Source of the DNA: a virus
Virus record (IMG/VR): IMGVR_UViG_3300008050_000036
Coordinates: 9,606-73,605 of that record
Strand: one strand, 5' to 3'
Length of the DNA stretch: 64,000 nt
Shown here piece after piece: positions 7,680-63,896 of the stretch. The first letter of the stretch is position 1. The number at the start of each line of letters is the position of its first letter. The notes under the pieces are model-generated. The model saw nothing but the letters and a program-made list of their open reading frames with translations, was not told the origin of the DNA and made no database searches. The position numbers and the translations under genes are program-made.

Positions 7680-7680
7680 G

Positions 7681-26439: not shown

Positions 26440-27597
26440 TCAACTAAGGTCCCGTATCTTCCCGCTTGCTTTGAAAAAGGTGCAAGTCAATTCGCCCATT
26501 GTGTGAAACATTCCCATCTGACCAAGACGGTTAATACCGAAGGGGTCGCCGGTTTCAATACCTGATTCGTGGTAAAGTGTTGGTTTTGCGGTAGTGAACC
26601 ATTGGTAGTCAGTATCTAAGAAGTAAAGACGGCTTGAACCACCGCTTTCTTTGTGAACATCTTTGGAGGGAATGATAGGCACACCGTTGTAGGTTGCTAC
26701 CATGAATCCACCTTGAATGCCCGGAACTCCCTTTACGCCATTGACGCCGGGAACTACACGCTTCATCTCAACAAATCGTTGCTGAGGTTGTAATAATTGC
26801 TGGATTGTTTCTAATGTGTCATATCCAGTTAAGATAACCTTTGGTTGGCCTCCTGCTTCCCATACACTGCGGAACATTCCGTCAAGCATATTAAGAGTAA
26901 GGGGGCGTTCTGCACCGGCTGTTCCTGCATCTACTTGGGCATCATACCATGAGGCTGAACCTGCGCTTCCACAGGTTAAATTATATATATCGTGGTCTGT
27001 TAATGCGCTAACATCACCAAAGGCTGCGGTTTCAACAAAGGATGAAGAAGTCACTCGGTCAAGAGATTCAAAGCCATTACCAGCAGGGGTGTCAATATCT
27101 TCAAGAAGCATCTTGTTCACATGTTCTGTGTGGTGCTTTGCCATTTCCATCTTCATTACTGCTCTTGCATCACCAAGTCCATCATCTTTGTCAGCGAGGA
27201 ACATTGCGGTTTCAGAAAGGTCAAATGTGTGAGCGATTGTCTTTGGCTTGGTGCTTACATGCTCAAAGGTAGGCTTACTGGTTTCAGGTAGGGTTGCGTT
27301 TTCACCAACACCGCCGCCTTTGTTAAAGTCAGGCTTTGCGGTAGTGACTCTCCAACCACTCTTTTCCCACGGTTTCTTAGGTAGGATTGAGAAGGCATTG
27401 AACTCTTGGTTCAACTGCGACCAAACTTTACGACCAAAGATTGCTTGGTATGTGCCGCTGGTGCTGCTCATTAAAGGTGCGTCTGCTTTCAAAAGGTCTG
27501 TCCCACTATAAGACCAAGCACCTTGTCCTGTGCCAGCCCCATAGTAAAGGCGTTCCATATCTTCAATCGTGCGTAAATATCCTGTGCTTCCACTCAT
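26440..27597 (-). CDS. Major capsid protein (HK97 fold)
   Basis: GVGENATLPET...PKTIAHTFDLSE...MEMAKHHTEHVNKMLL...YNGVPIIPSKD...GKIRDL. Lies directly after the protease/scaffold. Start at MSGSTG. Confidence 0.92.
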   Translation of the reverse strand: MSGSTGYLRTIEDMERLYYGAGTGQGAWSYSGTDLLKADAPLMSSTSGTYQAIFGRKVWSQLNQEFNAFSILPKKPWEKSGWRVTTAKPDFNKGGGVGENATLPETSKPTFEHVSTKPKTIAHTFDLSETAMFLADKDDGLGDARAVMKMEMAKHHTEHVNKMLLEDIDTPAGNGFESLDRVTSSSFVETAAFGDVSALTDHDIYNLTCGSAGSASWYDAQVDAGTAGAERPLTLNMLDGMFRSVWEAGGQPKVILTGYDTLETIQQLLQPQQRFVEMKRVVPGVNGVKGVPGIQGGFMVATYNGVPIIPSKDVHKESGGSSRLYFLDTDYQWFTTAKPTLYHESGIETGDPFGINRLGQMGMFHTMGELTCTFFKASGKIRDLS

Positions 27598-27610
27598 TTT
27601 TTTCAACTCC

Positions 27611-28945
27611 TTATTGTGTTCCTCCGAACATGGCTCTTTGGCCTAATTCCTCAAGTGCTTTCCACCCATCAACTCCGTTGCCTAAAGCAGCGTATTCTTC
27701 GTGGGTAGGAACTCTAATGTCGGTTTGTGCGGGAACTGCAACTGCTGACTTTTGAATCTCGGTGTTTTGTGTTTGGAGATTTGCTATTTCTGCTTTCAAA
27801 AGGTCAATTTGTCCTGAATAGTCTTGTGATTTCTGAATATCGAGTGCTTGTTGTGTTTCTGCTTCATAGCGGTCATGCCATTCTTTCTCAACAAGTGCTT
27901 TTACTGCTTCTTCATCACGGATTGCTGAGTATGCACCATATCCACGCTCAAGAGATTGTGGGCTTAGGTCAAGACCTTGCTTGATAACTTGTCTATTACC
28001 ACGGGCAGGGTGTTGATTCATACCGGCAACTTGGGGTTGCTTGATAACATATTTATTGGATTTGGCATTTGGTAGGCTTGGTGCGCTTGCGAGGGTAGCA
28101 TCTTCGCCACTACCTACTAAGTCACCCTGTCCTCTATGCCCATAGCCATGTTCACCATCAACGCCAGCCATATATGCTTTACCAAGACCGAAGTGGTCCC
28201 GAAGTCCGTTTAGATTAACACCTTGTTGGTGTGCAAACTTCTCAAGGGTATCAATGTAGGCAACGGCGGCTTCTTCGCCCTTACTTATTTCTGTTTGTTG
28301 TATTTCTTGTGTTGGTTGCTCAACTGCGGGTTCGTTTGTTTCCATATGCTTGTTAATGCGAGATAGTGCATCTCGGATTTCAGTTAGGGTTTCTGCTTGT
28401 TCATTTGTCATATTATCCACTTCCATTTTTAATAGTGTATATCCTGATTCGGGGTTAATCCCCTTTTTACACAAAGTAATTTCATGCAACTCCATATCGG
28501 TTATTTCGCGGTGTGAGCCGTGTTCTTCCGTAGTCTTATTTACTCGGAACAAGGCTTGGCCTCCGATAGAAAATGCTCGCAATTCACCACTGCGAATCTG
28601 TTTTTGCACTTCACGTGCTTTTTCAATATCATCTCTAATGCGGCATATAACAAAGAGTCCATGTTCATCAACATTTGATTTCCATACCCTGCCGTCTGAA
28701 TCAGTAAAGGAGTCAAGAACCTCACCAACTTGAATACCGCTATGTGCTAATTGCACATTACGATAAGACTTGTTAGCCATAAAACCATTAAAGGCTTTCT
28801 TTAATGCAGATACAGGGATTCTATCTCCCTGCTTATCTACCATATCAACAGAAGCATACCCCGCTACTACAAGGTCTTTATCAGCGACAGACTTCAAAAT
28901 AAAGTCTTGACCGATAGCCGACCATTGAGAGGTTGCGCTCGCCAT
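27611..28945 (-). CDS. Prohead protease (HK97 gp4/XkdF-like) fused to a coiled-coil scaffold
   Basis: VVAGYASVDMVDKQGDRI, AHS (His), LRAFSIGG (Ser), LHEITLC (Glu). Helical Gln/Glu-rich C-terminal half. Start re-assigned to MASATS at 28945. Confidence 0.9.
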   Translation of the reverse strand: MASATSQWSAIGQDFILKSVADKDLVVAGYASVDMVDKQGDRIPVSALKKAFNGFMANKSYRNVQLAHSGIQVGEVLDSFTDSDGRVWKSNVDEHGLFVICRIRDDIEKAREVQKQIRSGELRAFSIGGQALFRVNKTTEEHGSHREITDMELHEITLCKKGINPESGYTLLKMEVDNMTNEQAETLTEIRDALSRINKHMETNEPAVEQPTQEIQQTEISKGEEAAVAYIDTLEKFAHQQGVNLNGLRDHFGLGKAYMAGVDGEHGYGHRGQGDLVGSGEDATLASAPSLPNAKSNKYVIKQPQVAGMNQHPARGNRQVIKQGLDLSPQSLERGYGAYSAIRDEEAVKALVEKEWHDRYEAETQQALDIQKSQDYSGQIDLLKAEIANLQTQNTEIQKSAVAVPAQTDIRVPTHEEYAALGNGVDGWKALEELGQRAMFGGTQ

Positions 28946-28970
28946 TAAACTGCTTGACTTAGTGTTATGG

Positions 28971-28978
28971 TATTTAAG
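28971..28978 (-). promoter_or_regulatory. Putative archaeal TATA box for the protease-capsid operon
   Basis: CTTAAATA lies 26-33 nt upstream of ATG 28945 with no RBS, consistent with a leaderless archaeal transcript. A similar CCTTAAAG lies about 23-30 nt upstream of ATG 47009. Confidence 0.45.
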
Positions 28979-31900
28979 CATTGGGCGGTTGAGGGGGCAA
29001 AGAAGCGGGGATAGGCACTTCTTCTTCTTCTTCAAGAGGAACATTTACATTTGCTTCTTTTTCAGCCTCATGTTTTGTTTTTTGAGGGTATCTAAGAATA
29101 GCGGCCGGTCCTTCTACTTCTAATTCCCCTTCAATTTCTTCCCCTGCATCATCAGTAGTCTGTAATGTAATGTGTAATGGTTGTTTAGGCATATCGCCTT
29201 CTTCTGATTGGTAAGGGTCATAAAATGGGGTGGCTTCTTCATCAACCAATTCAGTAGGACCTCTTGGTGCATTATGAGCATCCATCATACCTGACCAGCC
29301 CCCACCAGTCATAGCCCCTACTGCAATTGCAGAACTAATTGCCTTTTCTTCAATCATTTCATCGTCAAGTGCTTCATTAACAGACCATTTACCACCTTCG
29401 GTTTGTTCTAAACCATATTCGCCTCCAAAGTCATTAACCATACTACTTGTTAATCCCTTAACTTTTGTTTTCAATTCAGATAGGGTCAGGGCCTCATCAT
29501 TATCCATAAGGTGTTGCTTGGCCTCAGTCAATTTTTCTTGAGAAGCACTACCTTCACCACTTGGCTCTAATAATGAGGCTTTAGTGAATAATAGGGTATT
29601 CAACGTGGGTATCGTTGGAGGATAGGGGGTAATCTCCTTAATATCATATTTACAAAGGTGGGCTGCTACTGGACCCCACAATTCGAATTGATGTTCAGCG
29701 TGGCGACCTAATGGGTTATTTGGTTTGATTGATTTAAGAGTTAATGTTGAACCATCCCACTCACTATTTACCACAACTGGTGAAGGGTGTCCTGTGTATT
29801 CTAATATCACACTACCGTTCCTACGGCTTACATGGGGTATAAGCCCCTTTGTAATATCATCACCATTTACAGTATATAATATCCATTTGTGGTGAACTTC
29901 TTTACCTTTCATAAATGTAGAGGTAGCATCTCGCAACCACACATCACCTTTGATACTATCAATACTTTTCTTTAGCCCGTCTTGGTCCGTGAACTTACAA
30001 TTAGCGGGCATAGGGAATGATACCCCTTCATCTGTTTCATACATTGTTCGCAAAAGATTTAACCTATCTTCAAGCATTTCCATGTGTATATCTTCATCCT
30101 TATGCACTAATAGGTCAATAGCCCTAAACTTTTTGCCTTTTAATACCCCATCAAAAGTGCAATTACCTTCTTGTTCTCTAATGCCTTTCTTTACAATATC
30201 CGGTAATTTTATTTTGCGCCCTTCTTTGTTAATACCTTTTACTTCATTACCTTTCTTAGAAATAATAACTCTCTTGCCTTCAGGCTTTTCCTGAATAACC
30301 CAATTACCACTAAAGCCCTTTAAGTCGCCTATATCATGTAAATCATAGATTGTGTGCGCTGGATTGATTACCTTTCGAAAAATACCAGTAGGTTCATAAT
30401 CGTCTGATTTCCATATATCCCCACTAACTATTGGTGCATGGCCTTCATCATTTGTCACAAACAATGCTGGTATATTGTTTTGTTTGGGGGTGGTAGGATA
30501 AGGCAAAATTGTAGGATTTACCATATTTACATGTCCTTCATGGGCGGTTCTTTGTAGAGTATCAAACGATTTATCCTTTATGTCAAAACGCACATTACCA
30601 CCTTTACGGTCATAATTCCAAGCAAGGGTGGTGGGCATTTTATGGCCCCAAGCATCTTTATCGCCGGTTAGATAGACTGGTGGGGTTGTTGCTTTTGAAG
30701 TAGGGTGAACTGGACCAATAGGCACATGTTGTTGATTCAAGCCCCCCGCCAACACGCTTGGGGCTATTGACTTTAATTTCTCATGCCCATTACGCATCAA
30801 CTGGTAATTAGCGGCTTGGGCTAATTGTTGTATATTGCCTCTCGCTACTGTGACTCCCCTTACATCAGAAGGGTGAGCATTAAACAAATCCGGATTATCC
30901 TTAGTCAAAGCAATAGCCATTTCTTGCATTACTTTGCCGAGGTTTTCATCGGTCTTTTCATAATGGTCGTTGTGATAAGCGTGGTATTGTTCATCTCCGG
31001 GGTGGCGTTCTTGGCTCATACCATTACGAGGCATCCCCATATCACTATGGGCAGATACAATACGACCTAATGGTTGAGTAATAAGTGCCTCCGAGGGAAT
31101 AATCATCCGTTTGCCACTACCTTCAACTTCCGAAGGGTGTAAATGATGATGATTAGATACTGACCCCCAAAGACCCCTACGAGCATTAAATGATTTAACG
31201 CGTGGGTGTTCAGACCCTACCTCCCATCCAGTAGCAATTGCAGAACGATGAGGGTGTCCTTTCATTGATTCGTGGTTAGCGGTTTCGGGGAAGTATGATG
31301 AACCGCTACTGTGGTAAGCATCTTCACTATCATTTAATGGGTGGTTTTCATTTTTTAAGAAGTCCAGCATATCGTTGCCTACCCACCCATCAAAAGCATC
31401 GGGGTATGATTGCTTCATTACAGAAATGAGAGAATCGTGCCCACGCCCTACACCTCCCCAATACTGAAAGGGATTCCACCAATGGTGGGTATGAGAAGGC
31501 GCAATACCTCCATTTTCTTCAACAAAGGGCGATTTGAAATGTTTTAGGTCGCTATTCATATCATCTGCCGATACCGGACCATGACGGTCTGATGCCCTTT
31601 GCCACCAACGGGCAATAGGTAAGAATCGCTCAAAGTAATTGCGTTTTGCTCGCCCCCAAGACATACCAGTAGCGGCGGGCATATCGTTAATTATTTTCTT
31701 TGCGGCGGGGCTATTAGGTGATTCGGTTTGACCTAATTTACGCAACATTCCCATAAATGCTTCATTTTGGTCAGGGGATTGCCATTCTGTCCCAAAAAGA
31801 TATGAAAGCATACCTAAGTTATTCCATTCCTTCTTTTTTACATCAATATATTCATCATCCGAAATAAATGAGTGACGGGTTTCTTTGTCATTTTTATACA

Positions 31901-32450: not shown

Positions 32451-32463
32451 TTTTTTAGCCCCC

Positions 32464-43171: not shown

Positions 43172-44913
43172 TTTTTACCCACCAAACCTATTTCTTGGGC
43201 GGCTGCTACATCACCGAAGCGATAAGCAGAAGTTTCTTCTTCACGAATTAAAGATTGGTCGCCGGGCGCAGTAGCAACTTCTTTGTTTGCTTGACCTCCC
43301 CGTTTAGCCGCTGAACCTAATTCGGGAGTGGCTTTCTTCAATCCCTCTACAATTTTGAGCAATTTTTTCAAATCCCGCTTCAAAGCCAATATATCAGACC
43401 TGCTAAAGTTTTTCCAATCTTTAGCAGATATTTGCATATCTGCTCTTTTTTCAAGCATTTTGAGGGGGTCGCCCCCTAATGGGTCGCCTATAAGTGAACC
43501 ACTTTCTTTGTTTTTTCCTTTGAAATGTGACAGTGAAGTGCCTTTACTGGATGATGGTTGAGAAGGCATTTTAGTGCCTTTGCCCCCCAAACCTATTGTT
43601 TGAACTTTCATTGCATCAGTTAATCCCCCTGCTGCCCCACGGTGTCCCGTCATATGGCGTGGTAATGCCCCCGTTTGACGAGCCATTTTCTCATTAGCCA
43701 ATTTGCGTTGATATGCTATTGGGTCACGGAGTCTAAGGGGGATTGCCTTTGACCGCGGGTTGCCCCCCATCATGCGCCGTGGGTGAACTTGCCGTTTTGT
43801 TTCACGCGATACATTTTGTTCAGCCGCACCAGCCCTTCTTGCAGTAATGCCTTTTATGTCACGGCTTCCTCTTTTTTTCTTATCTTTCATCTTACGCTTA
43901 CGCTTGCGCTTGCGCTTGGCTTTAGACTTTTTTTCTTCTTCATCAGATTCTTCATCGGAGTCATACCTCCGACCACGTGTTTTGCGTTTTCCTTTTACAA
44001 TGTCACCAATGAATGGTGGGTCTGCCGAAGCGTTTTTCTGTTGCCAATTATTACTTGATTCCTTACTATTTCCAAAATCATAAATCCCTGCATCTAACTC
44101 ATTGATTCGCCCAGTATCATCATAATTAGGGTCATCTACAAAATCATCAGGTAATTTGCTGGCGGCGGGAACAGCCGCATGTGCTGGTGTAAATGCAAGC
44201 CATTTAAGTTTGTCAAGAGGGGGTGCATCTTTCAATTTTTTATATGGTGCTAAATAATCATTAGCCAAATTAGTAAATTGTTCGGGGGAAGGCGCGCTAC
44301 CCTGTTCTTCTAAAAAACGAGCAATCGTTTCACCATCAACTGCGCCTCCTACTACTGCGTTTTTATTACCATCACCTGCAATAAACCCCTGACCAAACCT
44401 CCGTGGGTTTTTATCATATTCTTCACGTAATCGCTCTATTATATGTTCTTCTAAAGGATTATCCTTAACAATAGACCAAGCATCTTCAAAGGCATCATTA
44501 CTACGCCCAAAAATCATCCCCGGTCCTTCTCTTGAAATAGGTCCTACATTAGCCCCTGTTGAAACACCAATACCCCTTAAATGCCCCATATCTACCCCAA
44601 GACCACTTTCTAATAATTCGCTTTCGCCATTAGTCATTGGTGTATTATCAATAGTCGCCTCAATTTCTTCGGGGTCAAGACTAATGTGTGGTATGCCGCC
44701 TTCTAATTCTTTGAAGGCTCTTTCTTTACGTGCTTTAGGGTCCCGTTGCTCAATACTTTCATTTGAAGCGGCTTCACGGTTATGATGTGATAAACCATCA
44801 GCATCTTCATTGGGGTTCACATCATAGTCACCGACCATTTCACGGGGATGAAAGCCCCCAGTGAACTCTTGGACCCTAAGTGTATCATCAACACCTCTTG
44901 GTGATTTAGGCAT
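43168..44913 (-). CDS. Multi-module protein with internal AFEDAWSIVK tag and Lys/Arg-rich tract
   Basis: RSNDAFEDAWSIVKD (tag at 44464..44493). KKSKAKRKRKRKRKMKDKKKRG basic tract. Confidence 0.8.
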   Translation of the reverse strand: MPKSPRGVDDTLRVQEFTGGFHPREMVGDYDVNPNEDADGLSHHNREAASNESIEQRDPKARKERAFKELEGGIPHISLDPEEIEATIDNTPMTNGESELLESGLGVDMGHLRGIGVSTGANVGPISREGPGMIFGRSNDAFEDAWSIVKDNPLEEHIIERLREEYDKNPRRFGQGFIAGDGNKNAVVGGAVDGETIARFLEEQGSAPSPEQFTNLANDYLAPYKKLKDAPPLDKLKWLAFTPAHAAVPAASKLPDDFVDDPNYDDTGRINELDAGIYDFGNSKESSNNWQQKNASADPPFIGDIVKGKRKTRGRRYDSDEESDEEEKKSKAKRKRKRKRKMKDKKKRGSRDIKGITARRAGAAEQNVSRETKRQVHPRRMMGGNPRSKAIPLRLRDPIAYQRKLANEKMARQTGALPRHMTGHRGAAGGLTDAMKVQTIGLGGKGTKMPSQPSSSKGTSLSHFKGKNKESGSLIGDPLGGDPLKMLEKRADMQISAKDWKNFSRSDILALKRDLKKLLKIVEGLKKATPELGSAAKRGGQANKEVATAPGDQSLIREEETSAYRFGDVAAAQEIGLVGKK

Positions 44914-52520: not shown

Positions 52521-54155
52521 TCACCTGTTCCTGTTAAAATGCCCTAAAACGGCATCAGCCATTGCCCTTGCTACTAAGGGATTAACGGCATTTCCTATTC
52601 CTCGTTGTGATTGCGCTGCGGTTGTATCGCCTAACTTATAATTCATCGGGAAGTTCCCCAAAGCCAAAACATCTTTTTGACTCAATGGCCCTACTCCTAA
52701 ATGTCCGGGTATATTACTACTGGTTAATGACGACATATGGGTATCTATTGGTTTAGTGCCATGCCATGAATACCCCTTCTTTTCAGAAGTCCACGGCGAG
52801 GGTGTATGCCCGCCACCCCTACCGGGAAATGGTGTGCCATGATGTGTTATATGAGGTTCTGTTAATAATTTTGTGGCAATTTTTGGGTCAATTACTCCAT
52901 TAGCGAGCAAACCTAAAATATAATCAGATTTACTTTCAAAATTATCGTGTTCTTCTTCCTCCATATGGGGCAAAAAGTCTTTTACTGTGTTCCAATTTGA
53001 CCTAAACTTTTGTCCGGGTGCTTCATCAAATGGTCTTTCAATGTCAATAAGTTGGTCTAATCCATAAAATCTATTACGTTGTTGTGCGCTGCCAAAATCA
53101 GCAGCATAAGTAGGCTTGCTTCTTTCTACCATCCGTTTAACCCATGCGGGAGGTTGCTTCCATTTTTGCCGACCTGATGCTAAAATGGGTTCTTTGATAT
53201 TGGGGGTTTGTTCAAAGGCTGATACAAATTGGTTTTTACCTAATTTACGGCGGAGTTCATTCGCAAGGTCAAAGGTATAATTCTGTAATAACATGGTTTG
53301 AGCATGGTCTTTTTCTCCCGGCCTTGCATTACTACTATTGATACATGGTGCTGATTGAGATAAAAATACTGGCCTACCGTCTGCATGGTCTATCATGCGC
53401 CCTGCCAATTCTTTATGTCCTAATTCGCCCTCTCCCTCGCCCAATGTCGCTTCAATTAACTCATGGTCGGGAAAATTGGCTCTAAATCGTTCTGCGGCGA
53501 TTGGGTCATTTTCAACACCAATGCCCGGTTCTAAGCCACTCATCTCTAATCCAACATCAGTGCCACCCCACCCTGAAAATGTAGTATTGCCTACTACATT
53601 ATGGGGGTTTTTTTGTTTTTTGGGGCGGTTCATAAGGTTATGATAAGCAGAATATATTTCAGGGTCTAAATAATCTCGCCCCTTGAGTAAAGTGTCCCAT
53701 GCTATTTCAAACGCATCTTCTGAGGCATAAAAGCCCATTTCACGTGCTTCTTTACCCTCCAATCCGGCAAACTTGCATTTATCCCATTGGTCCAATACTT
53801 GGCGAGCATAAAAATGAAACTCCGTTGGTGGTAATTCAGGCTTACGGCTTGTGACATTATTTTGATAGAACGGGCCGGGTATATCACCTGCAAAATCACG
53901 CAAAGCCGCTTCCAATTCTTCACAACTCATTGCATCATAGCCTTCTATAATTTTTGATTCATAGCCACGGGGTTGAATATCTGATTGCGCCAAGAGATTA
54001 TACCACATTTCCCTTGCTTTACCACAACATGGGTCATTCCCCATGTCTATCTGCTCAAAATCAGGGATAGTATCTTCATCGGGTAATAGAATATCATTAA
54101 CCCGTTCCCGCAAATTACGTGGTTCAATGGCGGAAGCCTCTAAATCACCTACCAT
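52521..54155 (-). CDS. Two-module protein: Cys-containing helical domain, tag linker, C5-cytosine DNA methyltransferase
   Basis: Motif I FSGWGG, II VENDP, IV SAPC, VI FEQTP (ENV variant), VIII AADFGSAQQRNRFY, X IGNAVNP. Preceded by ASEDAFEIAWDTLLKG. Confidence 0.8.
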   Translation of the reverse strand: MVGDLEASAIEPRNLRERVNDILLPDEDTIPDFEQIDMGNDPCCGKAREMWYNLLAQSDIQPRGYESKIIEGYDAMSCEELEAALRDFAGDIPGPFYQNNVTSRKPELPPTEFHFYARQVLDQWDKCKFAGLEGKEAREMGFYASEDAFEIAWDTLLKGRDYLDPEIYSAYHNLMNRPKKQKNPHNVVGNTTFSGWGGTDVGLEMSGLEPGIGVENDPIAAERFRANFPDHELIEATLGEGEGELGHKELAGRMIDHADGRPVFLSQSAPCINSSNARPGEKDHAQTMLLQNYTFDLANELRRKLGKNQFVSAFEQTPNIKEPILASGRQKWKQPPAWVKRMVERSKPTYAADFGSAQQRNRFYGLDQLIDIERPFDEAPGQKFRSNWNTVKDFLPHMEEEEHDNFESKSDYILGLLANGVIDPKIATKLLTEPHITHHGTPFPGRGGGHTPSPWTSEKKGYSWHGTKPIDTHMSSLTSSNIPGHLGVGPLSQKDVLALGNFPMNYKLGDTTAAQSQRGIGNAVNPLVARAMADAVLGHFNRNR

Positions 54156-54255
54156 ATAATCAATCCCTAAAGGTTTGCTTTCAAAAACATTTAGGTTATT
54201 TTAACCAAAAACAATAGTATTGGACCCATAATGTTCAATCCTCAAAGGGTATGTT

Positions 54256-54268
54256 AGGGTTGTCAGCC
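54256..54268 (+). promoter_or_regulatory. 13-bp motif AGGGTTGTCAGCC upstream of the thermosome (copy 2)
   Basis: Identical to 50727..50739. Ends 40-43 nt before ATGs 54308/54311, upstream of TTGATAGG. Confidence 0.55.
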
Positions 54269-54307
54269 ATGCAAGCATTGATAGGCTATGCCGTTTTGCC
54301 CCCATCC

Positions 54308-55879: not shown

Positions 55880-56716
55880 TTATTGTTGCCAATATGAACA
55901 TATTGCATGGTGGTCTGAAGCGGCCTTATGAACCCCTTGCTTACCCGGAGGCCCCCTTCTCTTTAATTGAGATGGAGTCATAGAACCCATAACCTCTTTG
56001 TGTGATATTTTCCACCCACAGGGGCAAGTGGCTACATATCCTCGGCTTAAATCATCACGGTCATGCCCAAAAACCCAAGCACCATCTTCTTTACGTAATA
56101 CATCAAACGCTTTATCAATAAGCCGCTTAATTTCACCATCAGGGGTTTGCCTAACATAAGGTTTATCAGACGCACTTTCAATAAGCCCCTCATTCACTAA
56201 TTTATTCCAGTAGTCAATTTTATCCCGTTCAACATTAGTGACATGGGCTGTTCCCCACTCAGAAACATCATCAATAAACTCTTGGAGGCGTTCTCTTGAT
56301 AGCCCTTGACCTCGCTTATCCGCAGCCATCGTAAAATTAGTAATGGCATTGTCATAATTTTCTTCGCCTTCTTGCTCTAATAAAATCGAGCGCATAACAC
56401 CACGGGCATCTCCTTCTTTTGATTCCCAAGCGGTATCATTTTCTGTCGTTGCACCTATCAAATCAGCAAGAATATCAGGATAACGGCCCCAATCAATTGA
56501 GGGTGGTTTATCCATAGACTCATCATCATATAAAGTCCACGTAGGGGCTTTACGCAATAAATTAAACGCTTTTTCAATCGGTTCACATTTACACTTCTTT
56601 TTTTTACAGGTCTTACACGGCCAATCTACTTCAATTGGCTTGGGTTTAGATGGTTTCCCCCAATCATCATCCGTAGGGAAAACCTTAAATATAGAGAGAT
56701 TTGGTTGCCGCATCAA
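55880..56716 (-). CDS. Three-module protein: Cys knuckle, GNAT-like acetyltransferase, Zn finger, separated by AFxxLRK tags
   Basis: IEKAFNLLRK (56549..56569) and IDKAFDVLRK (56090..56110) bracket ITNFTMAADKRGQGLS...IDYWNKL (GNAT motifs A/B). Confidence 0.65.
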   Translation of the reverse strand: MMRQPNLSIFKVFPTDDDWGKPSKPKPIEVDWPCKTCKKKKCKCEPIEKAFNLLRKAPTWTLYDDESMDKPPSIDWGRYPDILADLIGATTENDTAWESKEGDARGVMRSILLEQEGEENYDNAITNFTMAADKRGQGLSRERLQEFIDDVSEWGTAHVTNVERDKIDYWNKLVNEGLIESASDKPYVRQTPDGEIKRLIDKAFDVLRKEDGAWVFGHDRDDLSRGYVATCPCGWKISHKEVMGSMTPSQLKRRGPPGKQGVHKAASDHHAICSYWQQ

Positions 56717-58692
56717 AACCCCTCCACCTCAAAGCGACTATTAGGGAAGTCAATACTTGACCCCAACAAACGCTTCTTCTTCCGTGAATCATCCAATTCG
56801 CTAATTATTTGCCTTACATCACGGCTAATATCAGGGGTATATTGGGGATAGCGTTTTGGTATGGGTGTTCTCTTGGCTGAGGCTAATAAGCGAGCAATTT
56901 CTTCTTGCCCATATAACCCCCGTTCATCATCAATAAAGGGGCTTTCTGAAACATAATCAATAATTCGCCCATCAGCCCCTACATTGCCCCCTTCTTCATA
57001 GAATGGTTGGGGATTACCATATTCGTTAGCGGCCATTTGACGGGCTTCATCCATATCTCCCCCTGCTGCATCTATTATTTCCCAATCAATATCTTCATCC
57101 CTTAACCCATCAAGATATTCTACCATGTCATCTTCATCAACATTTATATCTTTTAAGCCGAAAAGATGCGCCGCAATGCCACCCAACCTTGCTTCATCAG
57201 CAATGCCCCACTCTAATGCTTCTTGAAAAGTAGGGCTTTTCTCCTGCACTAAATCCAAAGAAGAAGTATCACCATATTTAGTATTAAATACTGAATAAGG
57301 GCTTATATCTCCGTCTGTAAAATCACCTAATACTTTCGACCACCAAGCCTCTAAGGGGCTTCTCATTACATTGTCCGGCGCAGACATTAAATGACTATTC
57401 ATAAAATTATTATTACCACCAATTAAATTAAAAGGATGCCTCGTAATGGTATTTTGCAGGGCCGAGCGTTGCCCCCTATCTGAATCTTTTGGCACTTTAG
57501 CCACCATATCATGGGTCGGTATATTGAATACTCTTGCTTCAAGACCTTGACCCAATGGAGTAGGGATAGGGCCAAGAGGTAATTGATATTCCCCCTCATC
57601 TTCATCAAAACCATATTGCTGACCTTCTTTATCAAAAAAATTATTAGTATTTTCGTCTAAATAAAACCCTCCTTCACCAAACTGCTCTAAAGCAGCATTA
57701 AAATCAAATCGGTTAAAGGGCGACATAGTTAATCGCTCTCTAAACTCTTTGTAGGCTGCCTCATCTGCGGTGGCTTTTATTAGACTGGCTTCAACTCCAC
57801 AACCACAAGAACATTCATCCAAAGTATCATCACTACGATGTAGTAATTGCCAATTCTCAGGGAAGGCTTCATTTACAATTACTGCGCTGTTTTCATCATC
57901 AGGGTCAAAAGTATGGATGGGGGTATTGTTTCGTATGTATGCGTCAGGTTTTGGGCTTATCCATTTATCACCTTGCCTAAACCCCGCTAAACCCCTCCAA
58001 TCTCTAACATTGGGTATAAATTGATTAACATAATTATGCAAAACATCAGCGTTATCTTCCTGTCGTTGCGATACCCGTTGGTTTAATTCGTTAGCCGCTT
58101 CCAGTGAAGTCATGCGCCTAAATCCTTCACGATGGCCGGTTTCATCTTTAGGGGGTAGTGCAAGAGAAGGAGGGAGGTGTTTTAAGGGGGGTTTTTTAAC
58201 AGGTAAATATCTTTGGGGGGTGTCCCAACCACCCGACATTTGGCCTGAAGGATTAACATTCCACCAATAATCTGTTAATAATTCTTTGTGGGGCAATGTG
58301 CCTTCGCGTGTTAATTTTAATAATTCACTAATTGGCGTATTTTTTATTGTTTCTAATATATTTGCTCTATCTTTATCATAAGGATTAGGTTGAAAAAAGG
58401 GTTGGGGTTTATTTTCTATTCTATTTTTTTTCGCTTCGTTTAACCGGCCCACCAAATACTCTAATTTGTTTTTTTCAGGTATGTCTTGGTTTTTATCAGC
58501 AGGGTTTCCAAACATTAAGGATTCAACATAAGAGGGTGATACCCACCCCTTTTGAGAAAACTTGGCGCGGGCTTTAGGGTCGGGGATAAAACGGTATATG
58601 CTATCTGTATCTAAATACCAACGTAGCATATCATTTGGCGAAGGTTGAATATCTCTCCTACTTCCTTCGTATTTCTTATCCCTCATATTCAT
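56713..58692 (-). CDS. Two-module protein with C-terminal atypical protein-kinase-like domain
   Basis: After ASLIKA: LGQGLEARVF (Gly loop), VAKVP (Lys), LVQEK, LKDIN...GNVG, RIIDY. Confidence 0.55.
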   Translation of the reverse strand: MNMRDKKYEGSRRDIQPSPNDMLRWYLDTDSIYRFIPDPKARAKFSQKGWVSPSYVESLMFGNPADKNQDIPEKNKLEYLVGRLNEAKKNRIENKPQPFFQPNPYDKDRANILETIKNTPISELLKLTREGTLPHKELLTDYWWNVNPSGQMSGGWDTPQRYLPVKKPPLKHLPPSLALPPKDETGHREGFRRMTSLEAANELNQRVSQRQEDNADVLHNYVNQFIPNVRDWRGLAGFRQGDKWISPKPDAYIRNNTPIHTFDPDDENSAVIVNEAFPENWQLLHRSDDTLDECSCGCGVEASLIKATADEAAYKEFRERLTMSPFNRFDFNAALEQFGEGGFYLDENTNNFFDKEGQQYGFDEDEGEYQLPLGPIPTPLGQGLEARVFNIPTHDMVAKVPKDSDRGQRSALQNTITRHPFNLIGGNNNFMNSHLMSAPDNVMRSPLEAWWSKVLGDFTDGDISPYSVFNTKYGDTSSLDLVQEKSPTFQEALEWGIADEARLGGIAAHLFGLKDINVDEDDMVEYLDGLRDEDIDWEIIDAAGGDMDEARQMAANEYGNPQPFYEEGGNVGADGRIIDYVSESPFIDDERGLYGQEEIARLLASAKRTPIPKRYPQYTPDISRDVRQIISELDDSRKKKRLLGSSIDFPNSRFEVEGF

Positions 58693-59126
58693 TTACCCCC
58701 CTTTGGGTAAATGCCGTATAATGCTAACATTTTCCGTCTTTCATCTTCGTCAATACCCGGAGTCGCAGACCAAGCACCATATTCTTGAAACCTCTCCCAA
58801 TCATTATCCACTTTGGATTGAGCAACCCTCTTTTCCTCATCAGACGCATCATCAGGTAATTTGGTGCGAACAGCATTCCAAATATCATCAGTATGGGGTG
58901 GGTTAAGGGCTTGGTGGGTGGATTCATGTGCTAAGATTTGCATTACCCTGTTCATTCGCTCTTTGTCTGAGGTCATGTTTCTAAATGCAGGTTCAATACG
59001 ATTTGAAAGATTGACGAATGCTTCATCGGTGTTCATATCATATCCACCGGCCATTAGGATATTAGGAAAACCGCCCATAAAACGAAAGTCTTTGACTATG
59101 AGCCACGCTTGTTCAAATGCACTCAT
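58689..59126 (-). CDS. Leader-tagged HExxH zinc-metallopeptidase-like protein
   Basis: MSAFEQAWLIVK leader (ATGA overlap, start 59126). ILAHESTHQA and downstream QEYGA. Confidence 0.75.
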   Translation of the reverse strand: MSAFEQAWLIVKDFRFMGGFPNILMAGGYDMNTDEAFVNLSNRIEPAFRNMTSDKERMNRVMQILAHESTHQALNPPHTDDIWNAVRTKLPDDASDEEKRVAQSKVDNDWERFQEYGAWSATPGIDEDERRKMLALYGIYPKGGK

Positions 59127-59422
59127 TCGGGCCACCCCGTTCCGTTGCACATATCGCATTCACGGCCTCTATAATCTCCATCCCCCCGACATTGAGCGCA
59201 AACTACGATTGTTTGCTTTGTTTCAGCATATTCCTTATCGTGAGGGAATAATTGTTCACACTTACCACACCACCAAGCGGCTACTCTCGGATAGCCAAAA
59301 CCAAACGAAGTCCATTCTTGGGTTCTTTTTGAACCACAATTCGGGCAAATGTCATTATTATTGAACTCGGCTACTGGTTCACCCTCTTTGAGTAATTTGA
59401 AGGCTCTATTAAATGCACTCAT
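59123..59422 (-). CDS. Leader-tagged double Zn-ribbon protein (DnaJ-type CxxCxGxG)
   Basis: MSAFNRAFKLLK leader. CPNC, CGKC, CAQCRGDG, CDMCNGTG. Confidence 0.8.
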   Translation of the reverse strand: MSAFNRAFKLLKEGEPVAEFNNNDICPNCGSKRTQEWTSFGFGYPRVAAWWCGKCEQLFPHDKEYAETKQTIVVCAQCRGDGDYRGRECDMCNGTGWPE

Positions 59423-59568
59423 TTACCAGTCACCCAACCAATGGCCCATACAAAGGGCAAACATACCAACAATATAGGTATTACGACTAATACAATGCCC
59501 AAAAGAGCAAAATCACCCATCATTCCCCACAAACCATTGGTTTTTGTTTGGTGGGTTTTATGGGTCAA
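59419..59568 (-). CDS. Small membrane peptide (untagged)
   Basis: TTGA overlap start. FALLGIVLVVIPILLVCLPFVWAIGW hydrophobic stretch. Confidence 0.55.
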   Translation of the reverse strand: MTHKTHQTKTNGLWGMMGDFALLGIVLVVIPILLVCLPFVWAIGWVTGK

Positions 59569-60023
59569 ACATCTCCCCCCTCTCTTGGGGCATCGTGAAA
59601 CCACGTTAATGCCGTTTCATCCCACGGCCCCCAAGTGTTATGCTCAAGCATTTTTTTATTCATTTCATCAACATTGTAGCGTATTATATCGTCTGAATTA
59701 AACCTCCCAAAGAAAGAATACAAAGCCAATGGTAATCTTGTGTCAGTAGAAGGGTCATAAGCCCATTCCATGTGTTCCCCCTCCACTGGTTCACCTTCAT
59801 GCACTTTACCTTCCAAATCACCCATGTAAGTAGTGAAAGCGTGTCCGTATTGCCTACCTTCAATTGGCCCCTGACCAGTCACTTGAGCATGAGCAAGTGA
59901 ATACCCCGGATTTGAACAAACCCATCTCCCTGCTTCCATATAACAATCCCCGTTTCTATTTTCTTCAGGAATATCCCCTTCTGCTTCCTTGAGCAAATCC
60001 CACGCTCTCTCAAATGCGGTCAT
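59565..60023 (-). CDS. Leader-tagged transglutaminase/papain-like (Cys-His-Asp) protein
   Basis: MTAFERAWDLLK leader. GDCY...YGHAF...AYDPS putative triad. Ends WGPWD. Confidence 0.65.
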   Translation of the reverse strand: MTAFERAWDLLKEAEGDIPEENRNGDCYMEAGRWVCSNPGYSLAHAQVTGQGPIEGRQYGHAFTTYMGDLEGKVHEGEPVEGEHMEWAYDPSTDTRLPLALYSFFGRFNSDDIIRYNVDEMNKKMLEHNTWGPWDETALTWFHDAPREGGDV

Positions 60024-60343
60024 CAAACCATCCCTCCCAAATCAGTATTTAATAATCCTAATCTCTCTAACATAGCATTGATATTTCCAATAATCAACTC
60101 AGGGGTAAAAAAGCCTATATTACCATCCGGGTTTCTAAGGCGTTTTTCTTCCTGTTCTAAATAATAAAGCCAACCCATCAAAGTATTCTCATCTTCCCTA
60201 TCAAGTAGCCTTCCAAAATTATCCATACAATAACGCCTATATCTTCTCAAATCGTCTGCGTCAAAAGTATTTGGCTTAAACCACTTAGCACCATCTTCAA
60301 GCCCTTCCTTGAGCAAATCCCATGCTCGTTCAAATGAGGTCAT
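60023..60343 (-). CDS. Leader-tagged helical hypothetical protein
   Basis: MTSFERAWDLLK leader at an ATGA overlap (start 60343). Confidence 0.75.
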   Translation of the reverse strand: MTSFERAWDLLKEGLEDGAKWFKPNTFDADDLRRYRRYCMDNFGRLLDREDENTLMGWLYYLEQEEKRLRNPDGNIGFFTPELIIGNINAMLERLGLLNTDLGGMV

Positions 60344-61053
60344 GGTCCCGTCACCTGCCTTTTCTGTGGCCCCCAATACTTCTTGCGTTGCCCTCGCTTC
60401 CATTCATTACGCCTATCTCTCATATCCACATAAGCATAAAAATCTTCATCGGCGGCATCTTCACGCATGGCTCGGCTTCGGTATAATTCATCCATGAGTC
60501 GGCTTCGCTGGCTTTCTGAATCATTAAACATTTGGTGTGTTGCTTGCGCTTCTTCTATTTCCTCTTGTGTCAATTGTCTAATCAAATGAGCCGGAATTGG
60601 TTTGTTGGTTCTGCGTTGGTCGAACTCATCATCCCATGCGAAAGAACGACCCAATCTCTTATCAGGAATGGGTATTTCGGGCATGAAATAAGGAGAATCA
60701 GGGTGTTTATCATCAATTTCCAACACTACTGCATCATCCTCACCTTGCATCCAGTCAGCACCCATCGTTATTGCCCCTGCTTTACCACCAACCGTATTCA
60801 TGGTCGGTGTGGCTTGGTCGCCCCAAAAAAACGACCAATCGCCACCATAATATGTTTCAAACTCTTTGTCAGACAAACCCAACAGTTCTTGAAGTTCTTT
60901 TTCTTTGCCATCCCAATTTCCACAAGTTAAGTCAGGTGGGGCATCATACGGCTTCAAGAATCCTTCCTCTTGTATCTGTTTCCACGCATCTTCGGTTGTG
61001 CCGTGATACATAGACATCTTCACTATGTCCCACGCTTTGTCAAATGCGTTCAT
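60340..61053 (-). CDS. Leader-tagged ADP-ribosyltransferase-fold (YHGT, Tpt1/KptA-like) protein
   Basis: MNAFDKAWDIVK then MSMYHGTT..WKQIQEEGFLKP...AVVLEID...KPIPAHLI. Confidence 0.65.
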   Translation of the reverse strand: MNAFDKAWDIVKMSMYHGTTEDAWKQIQEEGFLKPYDAPPDLTCGNWDGKEKELQELLGLSDKEFETYYGGDWSFFWGDQATPTMNTVGGKAGAITMGADWMQGEDDAVVLEIDDKHPDSPYFMPEIPIPDKRLGRSFAWDDEFDQRRTNKPIPAHLIRQLTQEEIEEAQATHQMFNDSESQRSRLMDELYRSRAMREDAADEDFYAYVDMRDRRNEWKRGQRKKYWGPQKRQVTGP

Positions 61054-62402
61054 GGGCGAAACTCTCCTGTCCCGTCACACCAGTCGCATTCATACGAATC
61101 AAGTTCCTTATTGTATTCCTTTTGCCCACCATTTCCCTTACATTTACCACAAACACGGATTGGTCGTGGTGTAATAGCATATTTGTTGTCGTGAGGGGTA
61201 AATGATTCACATTTCGGGCAATCCCAACCATGCACAACTGGATAGTCAAAACCCAATTGAGTTCGCCTTTGAACCATCTTACCGCCACATTTAGGGCAAA
61301 TATCGTTGCCACCGAACTCAATAGTGGGTTCGCCCCCCTTGAGCAACCGCATAGCGACTTCCATTGGTTCGCCTTTGTTCCCCTCTTGCCAATCAGTATC
61401 AACAACGGGATTATACATTATATCATTACGGCGATTAGATTTCATAGGCCCAAAAGGTGTAGGTATTGTATCGGATTCACCAACTTGTCCCATCTCGACT
61501 GGGTGTTGCATATATTGAGTAAATACGGGGTTATCGCTACGAAAATCACGAATAATTGCCTCGACATGCTCATTGTGTTCTTCAATAGGAATATCGTCAT
61601 TCAAGTTAAAATAGTTCATAATAATAACATTTAGTTTTGTCCTATCTTCGGGGGACATATTCGCTGACGCAGTATCATAAGGAGTCATTATTCCATCCTT
61701 GAGCAACCGCATGGTGACTTCCATTGGTTCGCCCGCTATTATCTTATCGTCAGTAATATCATATTGATAATCGGGGTTATCGTAAGGGGTTTGAATGGTT
61801 GTAGGATATGACCCAGTATAATCCTCCCCAGTATAGATTCTATCAAGAACCCGACTACGGGCTTTTGGTATGATAGGTTCCGGTGTATGGCGACCACCTC
61901 TATCTTGCATAGCCGCCCTTGTAGCCATTTCTAAAACATGCGCGGGCATTTCTCTTTGGGCAAAGGACCCCTCTCGGAACTGGCTATCTAAAGCATGGCC
62001 TACTTCATGCGCCATTTCCGGTGCTATATCAGCCGTGAACTTATCTATTGTTCTCTTTGTATCGAAATGTGTATCTCTTGGTTTGCCAAATCCGCCCCAA
62101 TTAGCCATTTCAGCATATCGTTTGAGGCCAACCTTTGTAGGGGCCAAGAAAGCCTTGCTGTCTATATGACTCGGCCATAACTTCTCAGCCTCAGCCTCAG
62201 TCATTAACTTATTGTCAATACCTTGAAAAAGGTCACTATAATAGACAAACCCCGGTAGCGGTCCGGGCTTTACCATATCCTCCCTGTTCGTCATACCGGC
62301 TACCTGCATTGCCTTTTTATCCGGCAGATAGTCATAATCGGCATCATATTCAAACCTCCGAGTTCCTTTAAGTAATCCCCAAGCAGTATCAAATGCGGTC
62401 AA
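61050..62402 (-). CDS. Leader-tagged three-module polyprotein (HExxH peptidase-like, helical domain, double Zn ribbon)
   Basis: TTG start MTAFDTAWGLLK. MAHEVGHALD...REMPA. Two internal GEPMEVxMRLLK linkers. Last module is paralogous to 59123..59422. Confidence 0.85.
   Translation of the reverse strand: MTAFDTAWGLLKGTRRFEYDADYDYLPDKKAMQVAGMTNREDMVKPGPLPGFVYYSDLFQGIDNKLMTEAEAEKLWPSHIDSKAFLAPTKVGLKRYAEMANWGGFGKPRDTHFDTKRTIDKFTADIAPEMAHEVGHALDSQFREGSFAQREMPAHVLEMATRAAMQDRGGRHTPEPIIPKARSRVLDRIYTGEDYTGSYPTTIQTPYDNPDYQYDITDDKIIAGEPMEVTMRLLKDGIMTPYDTASANMSPEDRTKLNVIIMNYFNLNDDIPIEEHNEHVEAIIRDFRSDNPVFTQYMQHPVEMGQVGESDTIPTPFGPMKSNRRNDIMYNPVVDTDWQEGNKGEPMEVAMRLLKGGEPTIEFGGNDICPKCGGKMVQRRTQLGFDYPVVHGWDCPKCESFTPHDNKYAITPRPIRVCGKCKGNGGQKEYNKELDSYECDWCDGTGEFRP
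61337..61733. repeat. 37-bp direct repeat (35/37 identical), 360-bp period, encoding GEPMEVxMRLLK
   Basis: ccttgagcaaccgcat(a/g)g(c/t)gacttccattggttcgcc at 61337..61373 and 61697..61733. Confidence 0.9.
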
Positions 62403-63094
62403 ATTACATCACCCGCCAATTCATAAAACATTTCTAAATCCTTTGGCGTAATGCCCCTCGTATATCCCTTATCAGTTCTCGCAGTAAGCGCAATGCGCCC
62501 CAATAAAGACTCTAAACCTAATTCGTTTGCCATGACCCCTCTATGGTGACCGTCTGTGATATTTATTCTCCATTCAGTATTAGGATAATTAACAACACCT
62601 TTCAACGGCGGTGGTCTATATCCCTGCCTGTAAAAATCTGCATACTTTTGAGCCTGTGCCAATTTACCTGCCCAATTACCCCAACCACCAACCGTTTCTT
62701 CAGTAATGCCTTCTGACCAAGAAGTATCATCACCCTTAATCGGCACATCTTCAAAGCGAGCCAATTCCCACATATCAGGATTTGAGTATGAATCGTTCCA
62801 TACTAAATCATTCTTCGGCGGGCTAATTGCATAATTTTCAACGGGGCGGTCTTGTTCGGCTAACCAATTGCGTGAACGGATATTTTTTCGGTTGCGACCT
62901 TCTTCGGAATAATCACCATCTTCAAACGAAGGATAATCTAATACCTTTTGGGGCTTAGGTAATCGGGATAGCCGAGAGATTGAATTAGGTCGTTCTTGCG
63001 CTTGGATAACGGCTTCTGCATCAATTCTGCGAGGAAAATGGGGTGAAAATGCTTCTCCCTTCAACAAACCCCAAGCAGTATCAAAAGCGGTCAT
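62399..63094 (-). CDS. Leader-tagged ParB/Sulfiredoxin-like protein
   Basis: MTAFDTAWGLLK (start 63094). RPPPL...ITDGHHRGVMANELGL. Confidence 0.75.
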   Translation of the reverse strand: MTAFDTAWGLLKGEAFSPHFPRRIDAEAVIQAQERPNSISRLSRLPKPQKVLDYPSFEDGDYSEEGRNRKNIRSRNWLAEQDRPVENYAISPPKNDLVWNDSYSNPDMWELARFEDVPIKGDDTSWSEGITEETVGGWGNWAGKLAQAQKYADFYRQGYRPPPLKGVVNYPNTEWRINITDGHHRGVMANELGLESLLGRIALTARTDKGYTRGITPKDLEMFYELAGDVI

Positions 63095-63561
63095 GTGTGT
63101 CCTCTCCATCCGTATTCGTGAATTGAATTACCTTCGCTAAACAAATCCTTTGCCTTTACTGCCCTTCTAAGGAGTTTATACCCACCTTCGCCATGTCTGC
63201 CATGTCCGAATCTCATTCCATGTTCTTTCGCATAACCTTTTGATGTTGAAACCCAATCTCCGGGGTTAATTTTATTTCCTTCAATTTCATAAGGAACGGT
63301 TCTATAAACAAGCACCTTTGCATCAGGTTTGTTTCTAACTGACATAATGATTGAATGAGAGTGTCTATCTCGTTCCTGTGATTCTTGGCTACCATCCCCA
63401 TAGTATCGCACCCCTAAATGCGAATACAAATCTTCAGGATATATCCCGGTCATGTCATGCAAGGGCGAATGGTAATCGGGTTCAATCGGGGCTACATGGT
63501 GTCCTCGATAATCGTCAATGTCCTCTTTGACTAAACCCCATGCTCGTTCAAATGCGGTCAT
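63091..63561 (-). CDS. Leader-tagged ADP-ribosyltransferase-like (R-S-E type) domain protein
   Basis: MTAFERAWGLVK leader. VYRTVP...INPGDWVSTSKGYAKEHG...VKAKDLFSEGNSIHEYGW. Confidence 0.6.
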   Translation of the reverse strand: MTAFERAWGLVKEDIDDYRGHHVAPIEPDYHSPLHDMTGIYPEDLYSHLGVRYYGDGSQESQERDRHSHSIIMSVRNKPDAKVLVYRTVPYEIEGNKINPGDWVSTSKGYAKEHGMRFGHGRHGEGGYKLLRRAVKAKDLFSEGNSIHEYGWRGHT

Positions 63562-63896
63562 TCCATCCCTCCTAATAGGTCGCCGAAACCAGTAAAAGAT
63601 TCTTGAGAGTCGGGTGCATTCTTACTTACAAACATTTCAATTTTGTGTGAAACACCTGTATTTTTTAATGCTCGCAACACTTGATTTGGGGTCGCCCCTC
63701 TCAATGAATAATCAAGATGCCAATTATAGCCACCTAAACCTCCACCTGAATCAAATACAATACCCCTTTCTTCTAACTGGGCTTTTAATTGCCAAATAGC
63801 AAAATCTTCATCTTGGTTTATTGGTGTAATATGAACATCATAATACACCCATTCATCAGCCTTAAAAAGCCCCCAAGCAGTATCAAAGGCGGTCAT
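63558..63896 (-). CDS. Leader-tagged hypothetical alpha/beta protein
   Basis: MTAFDTAWGLFK leader. ATGA overlaps on both sides. Confidence 0.8.
   Translation of the reverse strand: MTAFDTAWGLFKADEWVYYDVHITPINQDEDFAIWQLKAQLEERGIVFDSGGGLGGYNWHLDYSLRGATPNQVLRALKNTGVSHKIEMFVSKNAPDSQESFTGFGDLLGGME

Follow-up and report, generated by a model that had tools for sequence, protein, structure and literature searches.

A twelve-residue Leu-Leu-Lys signal probably delimits exchangeable modules in proteins of magrovirus-like archaeal tailed viruses

Introduction

Why does a viral protein carry one short peptide at its start and twice more inside the chain? This question is raised by a 450-aa open reading frame (ORF) on the minus strand, at 61050..62402, of a 64,000-nt stretch of DNA (positions 9,606 to 73,605 of IMG/VR virus record IMGVR_UViG_3300008050_000036). 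The stretch, here termed the window, makes up the final 64 kb of a virus contig with a length of 73,605 nt. A first-pass annotation had described the ORF as a polyprotein in which two near-identical linkers separate three domains, with the tripeptide LLK as module boundary, and had suggested that a prohead protease cuts the linkers to free mature proteins equivalent to those of stand-alone genes. We show here that the internal linker recurs as an N-terminal tag of separate genes. Judged from the aligned homologues, the linker very probably is a true module boundary throughout the family, and the best explanation for the 450-aa ORF is that three independent cargo cassettes have been fused in a magrovirus-like archaeal tailed virus. 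For processing by the prohead protease, the sequences offer circumstantial support.

Results

The 450-aa ORF uses a TTG start that overlaps the stop of the upstream gene (TTGA), and its own stop lies at 61050-61052. TTG was taken as the start because an in-frame stop is found three codons upstream. The protein begins with an N-terminal tag, LTAFDTAWGLLK (residues 1-12, 62367..62402; all parts of the ORF lie on the minus strand), followed by module 1 with an HExxH motif (MAHEVGHALDS; residues 13-223, 61734..62366). Linker 1, GEPMEVTMRLLK (residues 224-235, 61698..61733), leads into module 2 (residues 236-343, 61374..61697), and linker 2, GEPMEVAMRLLK (residues 344-355, 61338..61373), into module 3, which contains four CxxC pairs (residues 356-450, 61053..61337). 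The two linkers are copies of a direct DNA repeat (61337-61373 and 61697-61733) that is as long and as widely spaced as first reported, with 35 of its 37 nt identical (95%) and a spacing of 360 nt. Identity ends at the linker edges and is therefore not due to chance.

The likeness of module 3 to the stand-alone tagged gene at 59123..59422 (minus strand; 99 aa, MSAFNRAFKLLK...), initially noticed by eye, is confirmed by BLASTP, which aligns residues 350-446 with residues 7-96 of the free paralogue (48/97 identical, 49%; E 1e-29). Similarity had been thought to start exactly at LLK; it begins three residues earlier, at A-x-x-L-L-K, because the linker itself copies the tag (AMRLLK versus AFKLLK). 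Three domains joined by helical linkers had also been expected. An AlphaFold2 model built from 14 sequences (mean pLDDT 48.1, pTM 0.25) indeed predicts helices at residues 3-13, 226-235 and 346-355 with folded stretches in between, yet the support is weak and the helical segments have pLDDT values below 50.

With the ORF as query, an exhaustive HMMER search across 1.84 billion representative proteins returned 20 matches, and these relatives speak directly to the boundary. One of them (P0001, 330 aa, 97% identical) consists of module 1, GEPMDIAMRLLK and module 3, and its alignment with the 450-aa ORF leaves exactly 120 positions gapped. This is the combined length of module 2 and one linker and hence corresponds to the 360-nt repeat spacing. 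Three module-1 homologues (P0004, P0005, P0011) stop at ..DITDDTII(S), right before the would-be GEP, and four others (P0007, P0008, P0009 and a homologue on viral contig L002) continue past the linker with four different modules. The joint in L002 resembles the canonical N-terminal tag (GEP-MAFDQAWDLAK). P0008 and P0009 themselves start with MLPMDLAMRLLK and MLPMDIAMQLVK, respectively (pattern MLPMD[LI]AM[RQ]L[LV]K); these starts match the linker, and internal linker and N-terminal tag are therefore one 12-residue unit, residue for residue. Module 3 is found as a free tagged gene in P0012, P0014 and the window paralogue described above, and for module 2 one distant relative was recovered, P0019, whose N-terminal region shares 42% identity with it over 72 aa.

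Joints of the same kind occur in other window genes. A 581-aa ORF (43168-44913) contains an in-frame insertion of about 150 aa that begins at an internal tag, NDAFEDAWSIVK (44464..44499, minus strand), and that is missing from the homologues in the related genomes G001 and G002. A 544-aa ORF (52521-54155) carries the tag-like EDAFEIAWDTLLK (53682..53720, minus strand) upstream of a C5 DNA methyltransferase domain. The 604-aa portal protein (34591-36405, minus strand) ends with a piece that reads ..MMDIMK|RNVTDPIHGSVP.., and in G001 this piece is a separate tagged ORF (..MIFEKAWEVAK|RSVRDPIHGSVP). The exact one-module indel, the swapped modules, the stand-alone versions of modules 1 and 3 and the use of the linker as an N-terminal tag elsewhere bear out the earlier reading of LLK as a module boundary, and comparison of homologues shows that cassettes are gained, lost and swapped exactly at the tag signal.

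The tag is not restricted to this ORF. Nine consecutive genes of the window (58689..63896, minus strand; starts at 63896, 63561, 63094, 62402, 61053, 60343, 60023, 59422 and 59126) each begin with M-[TSN]-[AS]-F-[DEN]-x-A-[WF]-x-[LI]-[LVF]-K, and most of these starts overlap or abut the preceding stop. As with the capsid targeting sequence (CTS) of phage T4, one short N-terminal peptide thus heads several unrelated proteins; such clusters are also present in G001, G002 and contig L063. Over the nine window tags, four codons are used for Ala7, three for Leu10 and two for Lys12. Since codons differ at conserved residues, selection acts on the peptide, and we show here that the 12-residue signal, a putative amphipathic helix, evolves under protein-level selection. 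Its consensus is M-x-[AP]-[FM]-[DE]-x-A-[WMF]-x-L-L-K at gene starts and [GS]-E-P-M-[DE]-[IL]-A-[MWF]-[RQ]-L-L-K within proteins.

DNA encoding EPMDIAMRLLK was found in 39 stretches of viral contigs (contigs of up to 115 kb), and 37 of these loci hold 202 tags in 132 open frames (at most 6 in any one frame). In about 710 kb of viral DNA, 257 matches to a loose motif were counted, compared to 21 in reversed and 36 in shuffled translations. The 144 internal copies follow [TARSK]-[GS]-E-P-M-D-I-A-[MWF]-[RQ]-L-L-K, a logo that is partly ascertainment-biased because the loci were picked by an exact pattern, and the 113 copies near frame starts follow M-[TSN]-[PA]-F-[DE]-x-A-W-x-[LVI]-[LV]-K. Long relatives were collected with the 1040-aa protein P0002 (E<=1e-5), giving 115 proteins of 572-1820 aa that are all unnamed or annotated as 'hypothetical protein'. 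Together they contain 350 tags versus 1 in the reversed sequences; 114 of the 115 have at least one tag and the maximum is 7, at a median spacing of 163 aa (range 61-480). Lys is present in all 338 tags with context, while the next residue varies freely, which looks like the P1/P1' pair of a protease site. At least 30 of the 114 tag-bearing long relatives (P0142-P0254) end in a shared 76-residue basic module past the last tag (..HTNRARHFKDKGTLL), recognized as Pfam DUF5872 in some of them; this module could be a common anchor.

Two other roles of the peptide were considered and dropped. An internal translation start at the linker Met does not fit, since this position is Met in 325 of the 338 tags and otherwise Phe, Ile or Leu, with Phe in the N-terminal tags. 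A Tat- or Sec-type signal was ruled out by eye, as a hydrophobic stretch is absent past the tag.

Among complete genomes, about 16 logo-fitting tags were counted in G004 and about 8 in G006. A search for M-x-A-F-[DE]-x-A-W-x-L-L-K in one genome for each of 185,579 prokaryote species gave six matches, of which one was clustered: L063, a 106-kb contig that bears the label uncultured Candidatus Poseidoniales and has nine tagged ORFs within 6 kb. It probably represents viral sequence within a single-cell assembly and provides a lead to the host. Genomes differ in how they use the signal. The window virus, G001 (capsid protein 77% identical to that of the window) and G002 (with the same protease motif, GYASVDMVDKQGDRIP) form a group with mostly single tagged genes and the F-D-x-A-W form of the tag, whereas the other eight genomes (capsid 64-68% identical) favour strings and the P-M-D-I-A-M-R form. 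The 450-aa ORF combines both, with the F-D-x-A-W form at its start and the P-M-D-I-A-M-R form at both joints. One further tagged ORF (..DAFNQGWSVVK) lies at contig position ~7224 on the minus strand, within the 9.6 kb before the window.

Which virus carries these genes? The window encodes a portal protein, a large terminase and a tape-measure-like protein, together with an HK97-fold major capsid protein (26440..27606, minus strand; phrog_24667 at 2.8e-51) and an S78 prohead protease (27611..29044, minus strand; Pfam PF04586 at 9.9e-10, phrog_23555 at 1.6e-19). In the latter, the Peptidase_S78 domain spans about residues 55-213 and is followed by a scaffold-like C-terminal part. A thermosome (group II chaperonin) subunit is encoded at 54251-55879 on the plus strand (NCBIfam thermosome alpha, 2.6e-194); it is the only long plus-strand gene in its part of the window. 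With its counterparts in the haloarchaeal siphoviruses HVTV-1 and HCTV-1/5, the capsid protein shares about 33% identity, and relatives have a size of 90-115 kb. Magroviruses of Marine Group II archaea have been described with capsids about 33% identical to haloarchaeal siphovirus capsids, a thermosome/GroEL and genomes of about 100 kb (PMC5434244). The window virus displays these listed features and by its gene content appears to be a magrovirus-like archaeal tailed virus; the 73.6-kb contig does not include the replication module.

The S78 gene stands beside the capsid gene in 10/10 viruses examined, and the S78 prohead protease is the only protease found in every one of them. Two conserved candidate sites flank the catalytic domain of the window protease, ..FILK|S (K51) and ..TLLK|M (K206). 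K51 is invariant in 10/10 aligned proteases, in the context ..[IL][LI]K|[GS] about ten residues before the catalytic domain, and L205-K206 is likewise invariant in 10/10, in GINPE..[IL]LK| at the end of the domain. In the capsid protein, a candidate maturation site TDLLK|ADAP (LLK at nt 27487-27495) belongs to a motif S-G-[TS]-[DE]-L-L-K-[AS]-D that is present in 10/10 viruses, with LLK at about residue 38-40, and L36 and K37 are invariant in 37 homologues. At this position HVTV-1 aligns with GGMSK|ADNLL. The HK97 capsid protein is cut at K103/S104 (PMC10275583), within ..KTFNK|SLGSDA, and for phage phi12 K/R at P1 has been reported as the only feature common to the cut sites (PMC8569155). The Lys in 338/338 tags agrees with the basic P1 expected of HK97-family (S78) substrates, which speaks for compatibility only. 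An AlphaFold2 model of the capsid protein (37 sequences) reached a mean pLDDT of 41.7, and a profile search of PDB sequences against the capsid alignment gave only the marginal match 6j3q (E 0.057, mid-protein).

Lys-ended sites were also seen in two further ORFs of this region. A 116-aa coiled-coil-like ORF (33225-33575, minus strand), which may encode a scaffold protein, contains ATADLLK|E and TSLLK|A, and its G001/G002 homologues keep both sites in place (EVLK|Q, ELRK|A; TLAK|E, DLRK|S). A 1169-aa ORF without family match (28974-32483, minus strand), located between the protease and the portal-side genes, has an N-terminus ..GPDEPLLK|EDAALMS that resembles the capsid sequence ..TDLLK|ADAPLMS; in its C-terminal half, a KxxG-type nucleotidyltransferase-like motif (EKPEGKR) was noticed by eye.

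What the modules do is only partly indicated by their sequences. The 450-aa ORF has no above-cut-off family in Pfam, PHROGs or NCBIfam, and a profile search of PDB sequences against its alignment gave no meaningful match. For module 1, no match was found in Pfam, NCBIfam, PHROG or PDB, and every score against the ESM Atlas stayed below 0.9; in the homologue alignment a conserved Glu lies downstream of HExxH, and a linker regularly follows the module. Module 3 is zinc-ribbon or DnaJ-CXXCXGXG-like, scoring under the Pfam cut-offs. A related-locus search of viral contigs revealed no relative of the 450-aa ORF, and its sole match on a metagenome contig (L059) was discarded as an unrelated protein with only a short word in common. 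Of its neighbours, the gene at 63091-63561 matches phrog_2579 'ParB C-terminal domain' at 2.4e-35. Four other tagged neighbours (60340-61053, 62399-63094, 59565-60023 and 58689-59126, all minus strand) contain motifs below family thresholds that were seen by eye: (M)YHGT (ADP-ribosyltransferase-type), DGHHRG (ParB/sulfiredoxin-type nucleases), a Cys...His pair and a second HExxH. A 278-aa ORF (55880-56716, minus strand) has, behind a Cys-rich stretch of about 45 aa, an internal tag-like EPIEKAFNLLRK in which Arg replaces Lys. Two very large minus-strand ORFs downstream of the tail genes, 3-7703 (>2567 aa, running off the window) and 7681-12876 (1731 aa, with a Laminin_G_3 domain), probably encode tail fibre or host-recognition proteins.

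Discussion

The observations described here can be brought together in a simple scheme. If the tag were a cut site and nothing else, there would be no point in placing it at the N-terminus of a single gene, and hence the helix should bind something first. By analogy with the T4 capsid targeting sequence, it would dock the cargo on a common virus-encoded partner during head assembly, and the HK97-type (S78) prohead protease would next cut after the invariant Lys. From the 450-aa protein, three products would be released: module 1, module 2, and a module 3 that is equivalent to the protein made by the free gene 59123-59422. The cargo would probably be host-takeover or anti-defence proteins that are delivered with the DNA. 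Capsid loading followed by prohead-protease cutting is plausible as a whole, and by analogy we lean slightly towards it. A wider proposal is that magroviruses use the 12-residue Leu-Leu-Lys helix as a universal address-and-cut code, by which any cassette with the helix would enter the assembling head and be released by the HK97-type prohead protease, be it encoded by a separate gene, strung together with others (up to eight modules per string) or inserted into a head protein; this we put forward tentatively, as something that might just as well turn out otherwise, or slightly more so.

Several points weigh against capsid loading and cutting. Hydrophobic-hydrophobic-Lys tripeptides are common by chance, and their presence in capsid and protease is therefore weak evidence alone. 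Conservation of the capsid LLK is unspecific because the capsid N-terminus is conserved throughout, and capsid site and tag have only LLK in common, not the rest of the helix. Both AlphaFold2 models are of low confidence. Five of the 114 long relatives, as well as P0003, P0006 and P0010, end 2-6 residues past the tag, which would be pointless for a pure cut site and thus fits better with docking. Moreover, 70 of the 82 tagged ORFs of relatives have no Pfam family at E 1e-4. Pfam matches among tagged ORFs are GP88 (2), D12 methyltransferase, DUF6321, DUF5872 (5), DUF3293/SAM-lyase and GNAT. Because most tagged ORFs match no Pfam family, the label 'effector' rests on few matches (DNA methyltransferases, SAM-lyase-like, GNAT and the 'ParB C-terminal' PHROG).

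Might the tag be a docking helix that is never cut? The proteins would then act whole and multivalent, the helix would bind a common partner such as capsid interior, scaffold, portal or a host factor, and the Lys would serve binding. It is in line with such a role that tags follow the 'dialect' of the genome and not the cargo family, pointing to one shared partner; module-1 homologues, for example, carry TAFDTAWGLLK, LPMDLAMRLLK, RPIEQSLSLLK or LAFHHAWDVLK. The proteins that end just past the tag, and conserved F/M, A and W/M positions that exceed the needs of a cut site, also agree with it. Against this stand the invariant Lys with a free next residue, which is the usual P1/P1' picture, and the Lys-ended tripeptides at conserved spots where head proteins normally get cut. 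Docking and cutting are moreover compatible, as the T4 sequence does both, and we regard a role in docking alone as unlikely. If the linkers are cut, another enzyme could be responsible, either a host protease or a tagged viral peptidase, for example by autoprocessing through the HExxH module 1. This module combines its HExxH with a conserved downstream Glu and has the linker regularly after it, autoproteolysis by metallopeptidase domains has been proposed for polyvalent proteins (Iyer et al., 2017; PMC5512222), and a host protease processes capsid and scaffold proteins of phage 80alpha (mentioned in PMC8569155). However, module-1 homologues were absent from 9/10 tag-bearing records searched, including 5/5 that are at least 94% complete, and were recovered only from G002, the positive control. 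As most genomes with tags lack module 1, this module is not the enzyme that cuts in general. The Cys/His-motif gene (59565-60026) went undetected in all five records searched, and among the genomes of the 185,579 species a tag cluster occurred only on the viral-looking 106-kb Poseidoniales-labelled contig. A different enzyme seems quite improbable to us, although a host protease might still act here.

The same holds, with similarly low probability, for a purely intracellular function in which the tagged proteins are no virion cargo and are instead recruited by the tag to some cellular or viral machine, such as a chaperonin, a degradation machine or a site of replication. The virus does encode a thermosome subunit, and placement of the tagged proteins in particles rests on inference. 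On the other hand, in the window virus (G000), G001 and G006 the tagged genes lie upstream of the head and tail genes and point the same way, and tagged pieces are fused to head-module proteins, as in the G000 portal, the C-terminus of which is the separate tagged ORF of G001. A chaperonin has been reported for only 12 of 26 magroviruses (PMC5434244), while tags are found in every relative examined. One might finally regard the repeat as a DNA-level recombination joint that has no function in the protein. The near-identity of the linkers in DNA between unrelated flanks, and a relative that differs by exactly one repeat unit, are what such a joint would leave behind. Residues are, however, conserved across genes and viruses while codons vary, and the motif is retained in hundreds of diverged proteins, so that this explanation is already disfavoured and has very little chance of being right.

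If capsid loading and cutting hold true, they would make sense of an extensive set of genes that lack annotation in marine archaeal viruses, which are abundant (capsid homologues number 1446 at E<=1e-10), and a simple sequence rule would split these genes into modules. The tag motif is unmentioned in the main text of two magrovirus papers (PMC5434244, PMC11706807), and the magrovirus literature searched contains no description of it, papers related to N-terminal sequences being judged by title. A tailed double-stranded DNA virus would furthermore make polyproteins with a repeated tag as cutting site, something uncommon in viruses of this class. Two questions become testable, namely which cargo head-tailed archaeal viruses bring into the cell and by what means it is selected. 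Should the universal code prove correct, cassettes would be freely exchangeable between viruses at the tag and would supply a virus group that ranks among the most abundant in the surface ocean with a plug-in arsenal of delivered proteins. The tag would also be a ready-made handle with which foreign proteins could be loaded into the capsid of an archaeal virus.

How does the tag compare to known systems? In phage T4, the CTS is found on the internal proteins IPI-III and Alt and is removed by the prohead protease gp21. Like the magrovirus tag, it is a short N-terminal peptide common to unrelated proteins. It ends in a cut motif of the head protease and its cargo is delivered with the DNA, as is proposed for the magrovirus tag; by analogy, the magrovirus tag may work in the same manner, with docking followed by a head-protease cut. 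T4, however, cuts after Glu, whereas here an HK97/S78-type protease accompanies a Lys-ended tag. The tag described here, known from sequence, is also repeated as an internal joint (up to 7 per protein), heads many more genes and belongs to viruses of an archaeal host. Encapsulin cargo-loading peptides and the N-terminal signals of contractile injection systems are likewise short peptides that direct diverse cargo, to a shell with the HK97 fold or to a phage-like particle. Encapsulin peptides are, in contrast, usually C-terminal and uncut, and sequence likeness to the tag is absent. African swine fever virus pp220/pp62 are chains of structural and core proteins that are cut by the viral protease at a repeated short motif, yet realm, protease and motif are different and the modules are fixed, not swappable cassettes.

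Giant phages (phiKZ, 201phi2-1, SPN3US) have many head-internal proteins that are cut by the prohead protease at one short motif. In the parts of the literature consulted, these motifs are not a gene-heading 12-residue helix and strings of unrelated cassettes are not described. Because protease family and cut residue differ, the magrovirus tag is not a member of the T4 CTS or giant-phage propeptide families. Phage P1 loads the anti-restriction Dar proteins into its head, and an N-terminal piece of DarA is removed by the prohead protease (PMC12810830); there, in contrast, no tag is common to the cargo and cassette strings are absent. Polyvalent proteins likewise unite many unrelated effector-type domains in one polypeptide; their genes lie close to virion genes, and packaging, possibly with processing, has been predicted for them (Iyer et al., 2017; PMC5512222). 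Their domains include metallopeptidase, ADP-ribosyltransferase, ParB-like and methyltransferase domains (PMC5512222), and the range of two to 15 unrelated domains given for them covers the three modules here and the up to 7 tags per protein in relatives. In contrast to polyvalent proteins, most modules here lack a match to known families, and modules from the strings also exist as tagged genes of their own. A conserved inter-domain tag is unmentioned in the sections of PMC5512222 consulted; what is new relative to polyvalent proteins is thus a fixed tag that stands between modules and also heads separate genes.

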